Below are positions 56,103 to 61,712 of a stretch of DNA of 64,000 bases, piece by piece. The stretch's first letter is position 1. Each line of letters begins with the position of its first letter. The DNA is from Omnitrophica WOR_2 bacterium RIFOXYA2_FULL_38_17 (GTDB lineage Bacteria; Omnitrophota; Gorgyraeia; Zapsychrales; Zapsychraceae), in NCBI GenBank assembly GCA_001805965.1, contig MHHG01000053.1, positions 1,512-65,511 on the forward strand, written 5' to 3'. The notes below the pieces were generated by a model. It saw only the letters and a list, made by a program, of their open reading frames with translations, was not told the origin of the DNA and ran no database searches. A program made the translations under genes and the position numbers.

Positions 56103-57659
56103 TTAAAGCCTCGGGACTTTACCGATCATATAAAAATCTTCTTTTCGCAGCTTATCATAATCACCCGCAATGATCTTGGCACAACCTTCAATATTCTCTT
56201 CAATAGTAACATACTCACCTTTCTTGCCAGTAAAGACCTCGCTGACATGGAAAGGCTGTGTCATAAAATTATAAAGCTTCTCCGCACGAGTAAATACCTT
56301 TTGGTCTTCTTTATTAAGCTCTTCAACACCGATAACAGCAACAATCCTTTTTAGGCCATTATGCTTATTAAAATGCTGAATAACTTGTTGAGCAACATCA
56401 TAGTGCGTTTTTCCAACAATAGTCCTGTCAAGGTTAGTACAAGCGCTCTGAAGAGGGTCAATGGCAGGATACATACCTCTTTGAACAAGGTCTCTGGACA
56501 GAACGATCATACCATCAAGATAGCTAAAAATAGCAACAACCGCCGGGTCAGTAAAATCATCCGCAGGAACATAAACAGCCTGAAAAGCCGTTATAGAACC
56601 CCCTCCTTCAACCGAGCGTATCCTTTCCTGGACAGCGCTGATCTCAGAAGCCAATGTCGGCTGATAACCAGTTTCAGCAGGAACACGGCCTAGAATTGTA
56701 GATATTTCCTGACCACCCTGAATATATCTGTAAACATTATCCATGAAAAGAAGAACATCCTTGTTCTTTGACTGCAAGTATTCAGCTAGGCATAAACCCG
56801 CATTAACAACTTCTGCACGAGCGCCAGGAGGCTGATCCATCTGGCCAAAAGCCAACATAACGTTCTTAAGAAGATTGCTCTCCTTTAACTCAAAATAAAG
56901 TTCATTTCCTTCCCTGATACGCTCTCCAATGCCTGAAAAAACACAAGCACCGCCATGCCTTTTAACAATATTATTAATTAGCTCTAAAATAACGACCGTC
57001 TTGCCGCAGCCAGCCCCTCCAAGGATACCGGTCTTACTTCCTTTGACCAAAGGAAAAAGAAGATCAAAGTATTTAATACCCGTCTCTAAAACTTCAAATT
57101 TTTCACCTTTTTTATTCGCTAAATTAAAACCAACAGACTTTCTCAAAGTTCTAATAGGAACACGTCCCGGACAATCAAATTCGCCACTATTGTCTAATGG
57201 GCGCCCGGTGGCATCCATGACCCTTCCGAAACAACCATCACCCATAGGTATCGTAATAGATTTATTAGTGTTATAAACAGTAGAATTCAGCTGCAGATTA
57301 AGAGTATCCATTAAAGCAACAGTCCTCACTATATTCTTTGACAAATGCTCAGCTGTTTGTAAAACAACTTCTAACCCATCAACCGTATAAGCCTTTATAA
57401 CATCATATAAAGCCGGCATATCTTCCGGATTATCAAACCAGCAATCAGCGATCGGCCCTTGAACACTTATGATCCTGCCTAAACGGGTCTTTTCATCTTC
57501 CTGGTCAGGCATAGACATGAACGCCGATTTACGACCAGGCTTAACCACATTTTCTTCCTTTATATAGCCATCTGCTCCCACTTTTGTTTTAGCTACATTG
57601 CTCTTCTCTTGAGGATCAGAAGCTTTTTTTTCATCTTTCTTATGTTCTTTATTTTCCAA
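56103..57659 (-). CDS. atpD: F-type ATPase beta subunit, with a possible Lys/Glu-rich N-terminal extension
   Basis: [19 protein letters not shown]-loop and high overall beta-subunit similarity. The stop lies 2 nt before the gspE ATG. Confidence 0.9.
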
Positions 57660-57674
57660 TTGATTCCCCTTTGC

Positions 57675-58526
57675 CTATTTCATAGTCATCATTCTTGCAG
57701 AAAATGTTTCACGAAGACTTTTATCAATATCACCTTTTTTTGCCTTAATATATTTCATGCCGACTTTTGTTCTTTCCTTCTTCATTTTGTCGACACTATC
57801 CTCAAGGAAGCTTGATTGTGCAGAAGCTGAAGCAATGATCGTATCAATAAAGATCTCATATAATCTTGTAGATACCCATAGATTTGTCAGGATCCCGATC
57901 ACCTGCATTGGATCAGACTCTTCAATAACCTCATCAAAAATATCCACAAATTCATGCTGCTTTTTTAACAAGTCAACACATGGCAACAGCTGAACTACTT
58001 TCCTTAATTGTGTGTCAAATGATTTTGGCCATGCGTAAACGACTAAAACCTTGCCAAGCCTGTCATTCATGATCTCGTCAACAAGATAATCCTTGACCAT
58101 AATAACCGTCTCATAAATACCTATAGCCTCCATATTATTAAAGGCTCTAATGTTCTGATCAATCTCTCTAAAACGAGCTTCCGCCTTGTTTCCAACTGCA
58201 ATTAATTTTACATCTTCATATTTTTCTTTTTCTTCAATAGCTGTTCTAAGTATCTTGTTATTAAATTCACCTAAAAAACTACCTTCTATGGTTACGGCTA
58301 ATATTCCGACTTTCTTGTTATCATTTTCGATCATAGGATGCTTTTTCTCAGTTAAACTTATCATCCTAAAGAACTCAACAAAAGTCTGTCCAAACCTTCT
58401 GAATTTATTTTTCTCGTTCATCAAAGTAAAGAGCTTGTTGTCAGCAATATCCTTCAACGTTTGAACAAGTTCAACCATTTCCTTTACATCTAACAATTCC
58501 CCTTTTACTTTACTTGCTTTACCCAT
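57675..58526 (-). CDS. atpG: F-type ATPase gamma subunit (divergent)
   Basis: 283 aa, with N- and C-terminal helices resembling gamma. Position between the b-delta fusion and beta. Confidence 0.65.
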   Translation of the reverse strand: MGKASKVKGELLDVKEMVELVQTLKDIADNKLFTLMNEKNKFRRFGQTFVEFFRMISLTEKKHPMIENDNKKVGILAVTIEGSFLGEFNNKILRTAIEEKEKYEDVKLIAVGNKAEARFREIDQNIRAFNNMEAIGIYETVIMVKDYLVDEIMNDRLGKVLVVYAWPKSFDTQLRKVVQLLPCVDLLKKQHEFVDIFDEVIEESDPMQVIGILTNLWVSTRLYEIFIDTIIASASAQSSFLEDSVDKMKKERTKVGMKYIKAKKGDIDKSLRETFSARMMTMK

Positions 58527-58563
58527 TTACAATTACCTTATATTCTTTAACACAATATCATAG

Positions 58564-59849: not shown

Positions 59850-59871
59850 AAATTTATCCTATTTGTAATAT

Positions 59872-60159
59872 TTAAAATTCATCTTCCTGATCAACGATCT
59901 TCTTTTTTATCTGCTCTTCAACCATAATTGTGCACTCATTCGCAAAAAACCTGACAACTCCTCCATTTATTGGGATCCTTTCGTTCATATCAATAACAAC
60001 ATCACCTTTAACTAAAACACCTAACAAAGGATAATGATATGCTAAAAGCTCATACTCTCCTGTATCACCTGTGAGAAATACTGACTCAGCCTCCTTTTCA
60101 TATATCAATCTATATGGGCTTATAATAATGCATTTAAATTTTTGCGAAAATTGTACCAT
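59872..60159 (-). CDS. atpC: F-type ATPase epsilon subunit, beta-sandwich domain only (no C-terminal helical hairpin)
   Basis: ...FLTGDTGEYELLAYHYPLLGVLVKGDVVI...IPINGGVVRF.ANECTIMVE matches the epsilon N-terminal domain, 95 aa. Confidence 0.75.
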   Translation of the reverse strand: MVQFSQKFKCIIISPYRLIYEKEAESVFLTGDTGEYELLAYHYPLLGVLVKGDVVIDMNERIPINGGVVRFFANECTIMVEEQIKKKIVDQEDEF

Positions 60160-60164
60160 ATTAA

Positions 60165-61712
60165 TTACTCATTCTTGGATGTTGCTTCTTCCAGGATATC
60201 CCTGCCTATATTTGACAGGATATCGGTATCCTCTTCATCTTCAATTTCTGGCCTTATCCCAGATGTCTTATTGAGATATGCCTCTATAATTTCATTAAAG
60301 GCATTTTCTATTTCCTCATCCATTTTTTTCCTTGCACGTAATTTTGTGATAATCTCAGGATTAAGGTCTTTTGCAAATTCTAAAATATTAAGCTGAAACT
60401 GATTAACAGCTTCTAAAGTTGGCAATTTATGCAAATACTTTTTATTAAATGCATATAATATGAGCACTAAAGATTCCATCGCCACCGGGCTGTCTTTATC
60501 CTGCCTTAATACACATCTCAATATCTCTCCGCTCCTAAGCTGCTCTAAAACCTCGTCTGATTGAGAACCTGACCTTAACTTAGACAGTCTTTCTAACTCC
60601 CTAAACTGCAAAAATTCAAGTCGCAAAGGCCCGCTCAACTGTTTAATAATAGGCCACTGTACCTTAGTACCGACACGTGAAACAGAAAGCCCCAGATCCA
60701 GCGCAGGTTTTTGACCTTCACCAAAGAGGGCAGCATCAAGCATTATCTGCCCATCGGTCATAGAAACAAGATTAGACGGAACAAAAGCAGTCAAGTCTCC
60801 CTCAAGAATCTCAACAATAGGCAGGAATGTCATCGAGCCTTGACCATGATCTTCATCCAAGTAACATGCGCGTTCGATCATCTTGGAATGCAGATAAAAA
60901 ATATCGCCAGGATAAGAATCTCTACCTGGTGCCCTTCCTAATAATAGAGAGATCTCCCTATAACACCAGGCATGCTTGGTAAAATCATCAAATCCAATAA
61001 ACACATGTTTGCCTCTATGCATAAAATATTCACCGATCGAACAAGCAACATAAGGCGACAAATACTGCTGCCCTGGAGGGCTTGATGAAGGCGCCGCAAC
61101 GATAATAGTATAATCAAATGCATCATAATCCTGAAAAAGCTGAACAACTCTTGCAAGCTGCGACCTTGCTTTGCCTGTTGCAACATAAATACATATGACC
61201 CCGGTATCCTTCTGATTCAAGATCGTATCAGTAATAAATGTTGTCTTTCCAGTCATCTTGTTACCAAGGATCAACTGTCTTTGCCCCAAGCCAATAGGTA
61301 TCATTGAATCAAGGACCTTGGTGCCGGTTTCAAGCGTAAGACATAATGGAAGTCTTTCAAGAATAGCAGGAGCAGCCGGAAAAATTGGATAGTATGCATC
61401 TTCCTTTATCGGGCCTAATCCGTCAAACGGCTCACATAATGAAGTAACAATACGTCCTATAAAATTCTTTCCAACAGGCACCCTAAAAGGCTCTAGCGAT
61501 GCCCTTGCTTCATCACCCGTTCTGATCTTAGATGCTTCTTTTAATATCAAAACGTTTGCTTCCTGCTCATTAAAGCCTAAGATCATACCAATGGAACCAT
61601 AACCAAAATTGATCAGCTGCCCATTAATACAATGATTTAGCCCGACGACATTGATAATACAGCCACGGATACTTTTTACATAACCAACTTCTGTATATTG
61701 TAATTCTGCCAC
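60165..61712 (-). CDS. atpA: F-type ATPase alpha subunit
   Basis: GNKMTGKTTFITDTILNQK P-loop and ...YREISLLLGRAPGRDSYPGDIFYLHSKMIERA... Confidence 0.9.
   Translation of the reverse strand: MAELQYTEVGYVKSIRGCIINVVGLNHCINGQLINFGYGSIGMILGFNEQEANVLILKEASKIRTGDEARASLEPFRVPVGKNFIGRIVTSLCEPFDGLGPIKEDAYYPIFPAAPAILERLPLCLTLETGTKVLDSMIPIGLGQRQLILGNKMTGKTTFITDTILNQKDTGVICIYVATGKARSQLARVVQLFQDYDAFDYTIIVAAPSSSPPGQQYLSPYVACSIGEYFMHRGKHVFIGFDDFTKHAWCYREISLLLGRAPGRDSYPGDIFYLHSKMIERACYLDEDHGQGSMTFLPIVEILEGDLTAFVPSNLVSMTDGQIMLDAALFGEGQKPALDLGLSVSRVGTKVQWPIIKQLSGPLRLEFLQFRELERLSKLRSGSQSDEVLEQLRSGEILRCVLRQDKDSPVAMESLVLILYAFNKKYLHKLPTLEAVNQFQLNILEFAKDLNPEIITKLRARKKMDEEIENAFNEIIEAYLNKTSGIRPEIEDEEDTDILSNIGRDILEEATSKNE

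Follow-up and report, generated by a model that had tools for sequence, protein, structure and literature searches.

An F-type ATPase cluster without subunit a in an Omnitrophota operon for a giant protein and a T2SS/type IV pilus-like apparatus

Rotary F-type ATPases are defined by the coupling of ring rotation to ion flow via subunit a. Here we describe a unit of seven minus-strand open reading frames (ORFs; positions 56103–61712) on a 64-kb stretch of DNA from an Omnitrophota bacterium (the whole stretch analysed, hereafter the window), in which an F1 head (α3β3), a central stalk (γ and the β-sandwich of ε), c-type ring subunits and a single peripheral stalk (b fused to the C-terminal domain (CTD) of δ) are all encoded and conserved, while subunit a is missing. 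The reading that we favour, with a probability of roughly 0.6, is that of an Omnitrophota-specific accessory rotary ATPase of the F type that has given up ion coupling and acts as an ATP-hydrolysing motor within a larger envelope machine; the enzyme probably hydrolyses ATP for mechanical work and does not make ATP.

The ATPase genes and the missing subunit a

Pfam and NCBIfam profile searches identified the seven minus-strand ORFs, all at their expected coordinates, as genes for α, ε, c, c', b/δ, γ and β, in this order and with spacers of 5–70 nucleotides (nt), an arrangement that differs from both the canonical atpIBEFHAGDC order and the atpDCQRBEFAG order of N-ATPases. Both α (60165–61712, 515 amino acids (aa)) and β (56103–57659, 518 aa) score above the cut-offs of the NCBI equivalog models for atpA and atpD (TIGR00962, 505.3 bits versus 484.45; TIGR01039, 521.1 bits versus 462.85), and their best PDB matches are canonical F1 α and β subunits (387–450 bits). 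The P-loop GNKMTGKT and the arginine finger SVSRVG are present in α, as are the P-loop GGAGCGKT, the catalytic GERIRE and LLFMDN in β, and the P-loops, GERIRE, Walker B and the α arginine finger are invariant across relatives. At its C-terminus α bears an acidic extension of ∼30 aa, whereas its N-terminus begins near canonical position 22, the ∼20 residues that form the helix binding the N-terminal domain (NTD) of δ being gone. β starts at a TTG codon after AAAGGGG, a good ribosome-binding site, with a charged and disordered N-terminal extension of 60 aa that in relatives is variable, of low complexity, disordered and 12–87 aa long. The 95-aa ε (59872–60159) consists of the β-sandwich domain only (PF02823, residues 8–82) and is short in all gene-order variants described below; the loss of its inhibitory C-terminal helices fits an enzyme meant for ATP hydrolysis. 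By contrast γ (57675–58526, 283 aa; PF00231) is full length, and its family-specific LLPC motif is invariant in all these variants.

The peripheral stalk is encoded by a single gene (58564–59304, 246 aa) whose product matches both b and δ models. Its N-terminal portion, a transmembrane (TM) helix followed by a helix of ∼135 residues, aligns to b, residues 162–230 align to residues 99–167 of E. coli δ, and the δ NTD is absent, in agreement with the loss of its binding partner, the N-terminal helix of α. An AlphaFold2 (AF2) model (predicted local distance difference test (pLDDT) score of 87.5) shows the 135-residue helix, a second helix and an α/β domain that superposes on the CTD of δ/OSCP (1.3 Å over 70 residues), a predicted architecture resembling that of the mycobacterial b-δ fusion and of V-type subunit E. 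The fusion is common to all gene-order variants. Its best NCBIfam match, over the full length, is the N-ATPase b model TIGR03321; the fusion is of the N-ATPase type and not new.

The original prediction for this DNA had put forward a scrambled order with spacers of at most 70 nt, two c-type genes, a b subunit fused to the CTD of δ only, an ε devoid of inhibitory helices and intact P-loops in α and β, all of which our searches, alignments and model bear out; the charged β extension of ∼50 aa that it had thought possible was located at the N-terminus. When compared with a 94%-identical relative, all seven genes have ratios of nonsynonymous to synonymous substitution rates (dN/dS) of 0.011–0.112, indicative of strong purifying selection, and the cluster is therefore not decaying.

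The family appears to be widespread in, and particular to, the phylum: of the 394 homologues of γ, every one with a named source is from Candidatus Omnitrophota. A survey of one genome per GTDB species yielded 80 loci, and all 80 have the window's gene order (variant V1), carrying on one strand a giant ORF, a gene that we call UP1, α, ε, c, c', b/δ, γ, β and two genes of type II secretion system (T2SS) type, T2SSE and T2SSF, followed by an optional Peptidase_MA_2 gene and by genes for a GspG-like pilin, two minor pilins, a GspK-like protein, a PilM-PilN fusion and further proteins. The nearest full-length α at ≤46% identity also lies in a T2SS-linked cluster. Other orders were found around the nearest α representatives outside the immediate family, in locus L086 (ε-c-b/δ-α-γ-β, then T2SSE, PilZ, T2SSF and pilins) and locus L088 (α'-α-ε-c-b/δ-γ-β), and a metagenome survey seeded with L088 α yielded 80 more loci, 55 of them classifiable: 48 have the order UP1-ε-c-b/δ-α-γ-β-T2SSE (V2), six have a duplicated α (V3) and one has the window's order without c'. 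T2SSE lies downstream in 39 and UP1 upstream in 37 of these 55 loci. V2 corresponds to the canonical order minus a, with ε moved to the front; the UP1/T2SS linkage is common to all three variants, and every variant is without a.

The tandem α paralogues of V3-type loci (L088, 147–3084; also L091, L092, L155 and L157) are 46% and 40% identical to the window's α, and one copy in L092 is without the SxSRxG arginine-finger motif. Several other α representatives have N-terminal extensions of 200–280 aa.

No subunit a is encoded in the cluster or anywhere in the window, and none of the window's multi-TM ORFs (VTT, EamA, CrcB, a nucleoside transporter, a TPR membrane protein and an STT3-like protein) resembles it; nor was any further ATP-synthase gene found in the 64 kb. 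Scanning of ∼135 related loci of all three variants likewise revealed no a within ∼10 kb. The V1 loci (1.28 Mb) hold no unmatched ORF with ≥3–4 TM segments, and the V2/V3 loci (0.94 Mb) hold few multi-TM candidates, none matching PF00119; as a positive control, the TM scan was applied to two canonical a subunits, in which it detected 6–7 TM segments. Upstream sequence extended >5 kb beyond the ATPase genes in 29 of the 55 classifiable V2/V3 loci.

Published annotation points the same way. Two of our loci (L053 and L050) are the very contigs annotated for Ca. Aceula lacicola and Ca. A. meridiana, the curated metagenome-assembled genomes (MAGs) of which are 92% complete (Williams, 2021, Table S5; PMC8542988). 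The F-type entries for these MAGs are limited to AtpA, C, E, F, G and D, noted as 'adjacent to PilB and PilC' and with no a, and a complete V-type ATP synthase set is listed on another contig, whereas Ca. Kaelpia imicola has a canonical atpB-E-F-H-A-G-D cluster on a single contig, with atpC and an additional atpD fragment located on a different one, and no V-type enzyme (PMC8542988). In the accessible portion of the source data of Seymour (2023; PMC10066038), two genomes have α, one of them with K02111 and K02112 only and the other with a full canonical set.

The proteolipids and the ring carboxylate

The c subunit (59631–59849, 72 aa; PF00137, 34.7 bits versus a cut-off of 24) gives an ungapped alignment to yeast subunit 9 that places its RNP loop and Glu56 in canonical positions. 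No other protein of the whole operon is as highly conserved (median identity 76%, compared to 73% for β, 66% for α and 44% for c'), and its RNP loop is invariant (74/74 in V1, 55/55 in V2/V3).

The adjacent c' (59375–59608, 77 aa), which is confined to V1, has a hairpin of the same length as c, an R-Y-P loop, Glu61 and a dN/dS of 0.11. It has no Pfam match by itself, only 4 of 67 c' members singly match PF00137, and the c' profile gave no matches in the PDB. When the family profiles were aligned to each other, however, c and c' matched with an HHalign probability of 98.1% (E 8.6e-14); the alignment spans 71 columns free of gaps and brings Pro, Gly, R-x-P and Glu into register, while reversed or column-shuffled c profiles reached ≤0.6%. 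By profile comparison c' is thus a true, diverged paralogue of c. AtpR, AtpI and a minimal a were considered for c' and rejected, given the lack of any such Pfam match and of a conserved TM Arg or Lys, and the clear homology to c.

The ring carboxylate is essential in every ion-translocating ring of the F, V or A type. In the present family it is replaced in 13 of 129 c subunits of related species, namely three of 74 in V1 (Ile, Ser and Val) and ten of 55 in V2/V3 (seven Gln, one Thr, one Ser and one Met), and the Glu of c' is lost in 9 of 68 species; the window's own c and c' keep theirs. The ten carboxylate-less V2/V3 loci have a single c gene, no further hairpin ORF being found there, and retain the P-loops of α and β, GERxRE and SVSRIG. 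Judging by the differing substitutions and sequence backgrounds, the losses occurred in several separate lineages. Because the carboxylate is essential in all ion-translocating rings, these family members would be unable to move ions, yet they are otherwise maintained, which argues that ion coupling is dispensable in this ATPase family. The original prediction had already noted that there is no a in or beside the cluster, and hence no stator half-channel for the ring; the first statement holds for the window and extends to the ∼135 loci, and the second gains strength from this wider absence and from the loss of the carboxylate in ∼10% of lineages.

In one carboxylate-less cluster of the Gln type (L103), an insertion of ∼1 kb (7694–8707) separates c from b/δ and holds only short ORFs without TM segments.

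Operon setting, proposed mechanism and alternative readings

The ATPase genes lie within a co-oriented super-operon with gaps of 2–82 nt and one 4-nt overlap. Upstream, at the window edge, is the C-terminal end of a giant repeat protein (63101–64000, minus strand; the ORF is open to the edge), which on a contig of the same organism (ENA k141_233351) comprises 10,444 aa. Repeats of ∼13 residues with the consensus G[IV]NWxD[IL]xV[LM]S run through almost all of it (GxNW occurs 212 times within the C-terminal 3,332 aa), and no TM segment, signal peptide or Pfam match was detected. In one assembly the protein is collapsed to 1,484 aa. The giant protein was also noted at L083 (1–9998) and L085 (5544–9998), and homologues of the giant ORF lie upstream in related loci.

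The stop codon of the giant ORF is 2 nt from the start of UP1 (61782–63098, minus strand; 438 aa), the gene immediately before the ATPase genes, whose product is found in Omnitrophota only. A structural model of UP1 (pLDDT 85) has an N-terminal TM helix, two repeats of a β-sandwich plus helical bundle, a C-terminal TM helix and a Lys/Glu-rich tail, and no fold match to it was found in the PDB. Ahead of the tail, a conserved His and a W-x-x-R-S motif are found in the C-terminal TM helix. Having no more than two TM helices and lacking a counterpart in the PDB, UP1 was rejected both as a substitute for a and as a known T2SS part. In many relatives, V2 loci among them, the giant ORF ends in the UP1 module (noted at L094, L102, L111, L115, L120 and L137), a fusion that links UP1 to the giant protein.

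Downstream, 2 nt after the β stop codon, starts the gene for an assembly ATPase of the T2SS/type IV pilus (T4P) class (53842–56100, minus strand) with MshEN, T2SSE and C-terminal PilZ domains, followed by a T2SSF/PilC-type platform protein (52554–53759, minus strand) and by the remainder of a T2SS-like module (45864–52557, minus strand) comprising Peptidase_MA_2, a GspG-type pseudopilin, two minor pilins, a GspK-like protein, a PilM-PilN fusion, a 192-aa protein and a TPR protein. The assembly ATPase thus bears two sensor domains of the cyclic di-GMP (c-di-GMP) type, MshEN and PilZ; in V2 PilZ is a separate small gene.

The same arrangement is present on 14 contigs of the same organism. Since a scan of the region for promoters and terminators returned sites no more frequently than expected by chance, nothing argues against a single transcript. 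The best-supported reading is that the ATPase, the giant protein/UP1 and the T2SS/T4P-like apparatus operate together as one unit. The original prediction had described the cluster itself correctly, and had overlooked the super-operon with the giant protein, UP1 and the T2SS-like genes, the prior report of such loci in Omnitrophota and the N-ATPase-type fusion.

In the mechanism that we propose, ATP from fermentation or from the V-type enzyme would be hydrolysed in β, and γ–ε would turn the c (or c/c') ring against the b-δ stalk; with no half-channels, no ion would be moved. The ring would serve as membrane rotor or anchor, and torque or a conformational cycle would be passed on to the TM anchor of UP1/the giant protein or to the pseudopilus platform, so as to serve attachment, movement on surfaces or the handling of the giant protein. 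Rotation of the ring against b-δ is favoured because the parts that couple the rotor (γ, ε and the invariant RNP loop) are conserved, and because c is too conserved for a simple anchor. The more specific proposal that the c (c/c') ring was once an ion carrier and has become a purely mechanical membrane rotor, delivering torque to the UP1 TM anchor or the pseudopilus platform, is a tentative one. If true, it would add a new output class to the rotary ATPases and a new surface motor to ultra-small predatory or parasitic bacteria.

Several points weigh against the accessory-motor reading. The retention of Glu by both c and c' of the window, together with the extreme conservation of c, would be equally expected if the ring were ion-coupled and had a partner that escaped notice. 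The search for a covered the loci and published annotation, and a very divergent atpB might go unrecognised in KEGG Orthology (KO) and IMG annotations. Finally, the case for rotation comes solely from the conservation of rotor parts, and the mechanical output is putative.

The main rival is an ordinary ion-translocating F1Fo whose a is encoded elsewhere or is too divergent to be recognised, the odd gene order and the fusion being cosmetic. The canonical RNP loop and Glu of c and its conservation speak for it, as do the scores of α and β above the equivalog cut-offs, and split atp loci with orphan atpB genes do exist in other bacteria, Epsilonproteobacteria among them. Yet this explanation sits badly with the family-level data: no a appears within ∼10 kb in the ∼135 loci although the other subunits are in strict synteny, the 13 carboxylate-less c subunits rule out ion transport in their species, and the curated MAG tables list no a for cluster-bearing species while listing one for the species with a canonical operon. 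Moreover, the same genomes already own a V-type enzyme, and the δ NTD and the α N-terminal helix have both been lost. We therefore consider a split F1Fo improbable for the family, and possible for the window's genome because c and c' keep Glu there.

A second alternative, which we hold to be similarly unlikely, is a non-rotating, membrane-tethered F1-like ATPase akin to FliH-FliI-FliJ that feeds or unfolds the giant protein or pilins at an export gate, with c/c' and b as anchors. The b-δ fusion does have the architecture of FliH or V-type E, the carboxylate is dispensable, and a giant protein without signal peptide or TM segment is encoded immediately upstream. However, α and β are both kept in place of a homohexamer, the NCBIfam FliI/SctN models give 150–196 bits, far under their cut-offs of 380–715, and γ is full length, with ε and the invariant, ring-coupling RNP loop conserved as well; a mere anchor would also not be expected to be the operon's most conserved protein. 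A third reading would make the cluster an artefact of assembly, or else the decaying remains of an F-type ATP synthase that the V-type enzyme had rendered superfluous. The missing a and δ NTD and the loss of some c carboxylates might suggest as much, but this reading was rejected and is effectively refuted by dN/dS values of 0.01–0.11 for all genes, by invariant catalytic motifs and by the recurrence of the same syntenic arrangement in >130 independent assemblies besides the 14 contigs of the same organism.

A phylum-wide enzyme that has head, stalks and ring but no a, and sometimes no carboxylate, would show that coupling can be discarded, and would stand between true F1Fo and the F1-like motors of Mycoplasma, in which Fo is lost entirely. 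Such an enzyme would also provide a testable handle on how Omnitrophota nanobacteria run giant proteins and pili in attachment or predation. For metabolic reconstructions it calls for caution, in that 'F-type ATPase present' is not evidence of respiration or chemiosmosis: an F-type ATPase was counted in 37 of 39 Zapsychrales species (Seymour, 2023; PMC10066038), and according to a 2026 preprint most complete genomes have α and β without a complete complex (α and β in 125 of 176 complete genomes, a recognisable γ in only 30).

Relation to known systems

Loci of this type are known as the 'symbiotic' F-ATPase located beside type IVa pilus (T4aP) genes, for which a role in attachment or motility has been proposed (Williams, 2021, PMC8542988; Seymour, 2023, PMC10066038). 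Seymour (2023; PMC10066038) found 57 of 66 contigs with this 'symbiotic' sF-ATP within 10 kb of T4aP genes, judged the family non-respiratory and grouped it with the type 2/3 ATPases of Mycoplasma. By source genome and gene neighbourhood the window locus belongs to the same family of loci, which extends across the phylum and is co-located with PilB/PilC-type genes: it comes from an Omnitrophota genome, and its ATPase genes lie within 10 kb of T4aP/T2SS genes. The two published accounts cover the phylogeny of α and β, co-location and a subunit list only, and mention neither the absence of a, c', the b-δ(CTD) fusion and the loss of the carboxylate nor the three gene orders and the link to UP1 and the giant protein. 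Literature searches on an a-less F-ATPase in Omnitrophota turned up nothing beyond these two studies. The locus type is therefore already known, and we found no earlier description of the a-less architecture, c', carboxylate loss, order variants or UP1 fusion.

With canonical F1Fo the unit shares α and β that pass equivalog cut-offs and a recognisable c, γ and ε NTD. It differs in having no a, separate δ, δ NTD, α N-terminal helix or ε CTD, in its scrambled order, extra c' and secretion/pilus operon setting, and in belonging to a family in which the carboxylate is not universal. Heteromeric c-rings, such as c1/c2/c3 of Acetobacterium woodii and c/c'/c'' of V-type enzymes, work against an a subunit; they too have paralogous hairpin proteolipids, two of which are encoded side by side here, but in the present family c' is restricted to a single gene-order variant out of three and falls far behind c in conservation (44% versus 76%).

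N-ATPases (Dibrova et al., 2010; PMC2881411) resemble the unit in that they have no atpH, possess a long b with the δ C-terminal region and are always present in addition to the main ATP synthase. They differ in having a, AtpQ, AtpR, a Na+-binding c and another fixed order. Searches with Pfam and NCBIfam models gave no matches to AtpQ, AtpR or a at the window cluster, and the N-ATPase (alt_F1F0) models all remained below cut-off (α, 459 versus 750; β, 455 versus 752; b, 46.7 versus 224.7; c, 15 versus 131; γ, 16.5 versus 282).

The Mycoplasma type 2/3 systems (the gliding G1-ATPase and the MIB-MIP-linked type 3; Beven et al., 2012; PMC3369863) are likewise extra, non-respiratory, F1-derived ATPases without a from host-dependent bacteria, proposed to power surface machinery involving giant proteins. 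Their clusters of seven genes, however, have no c, b or δ and encode instead a 12-TM Protein 1, Protein 2, Protein 5 and unrelated 'X0' proteins (PMC3369863), while the window cluster holds no 12-TM protein and has c, c' and b/δ. The MMOB1660/1670 and MSC_0619/0618 models score 367 versus a cut-off of 600, 426 versus 850, 274 versus 520 and 397 versus 570, all below the canonical-model scores, and the G1 β of M. mobile (9io5_A) ranks under every canonical β. With models below cut-off, a low-ranking G1 β and a different gene content, the window ATPase does not appear to be of Mycoplasma type 2/3, and our comparisons thus do not support the placement by Seymour.

Among the loci examined for comparison, L089 (GCA_000798955.1; 10001–12031) carries a natural δ-α fusion of 676 aa (OSCP plus α) in an otherwise canonical atpI-B-E-F-(H/A)-G-D-C operon. 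In L087 (7662–8498) a canonical atp operon comes from an organism that reads TGA as Trp, the a ORF having in-frame TGA codons (for example in SFRL*GNIFAG); genes for PTS, PGK, GAPDH, Lon and acetate kinase lie nearby and would fit a Mollicute. The records for L005, L008, L009 and ∼30 other loci are titled 'uncultured Planctomycetales bacterium', probably a mislabel. Elsewhere in the window lie genes for an ankyrin-repeat protein (33148–34146, 332 aa) and an STT3-type oligosaccharyltransferase-like membrane protein (43170–45797, 875 aa), both unusual for bacteria, and for a 1,535-aa protein with two HATPase_c domains (34749–39356).

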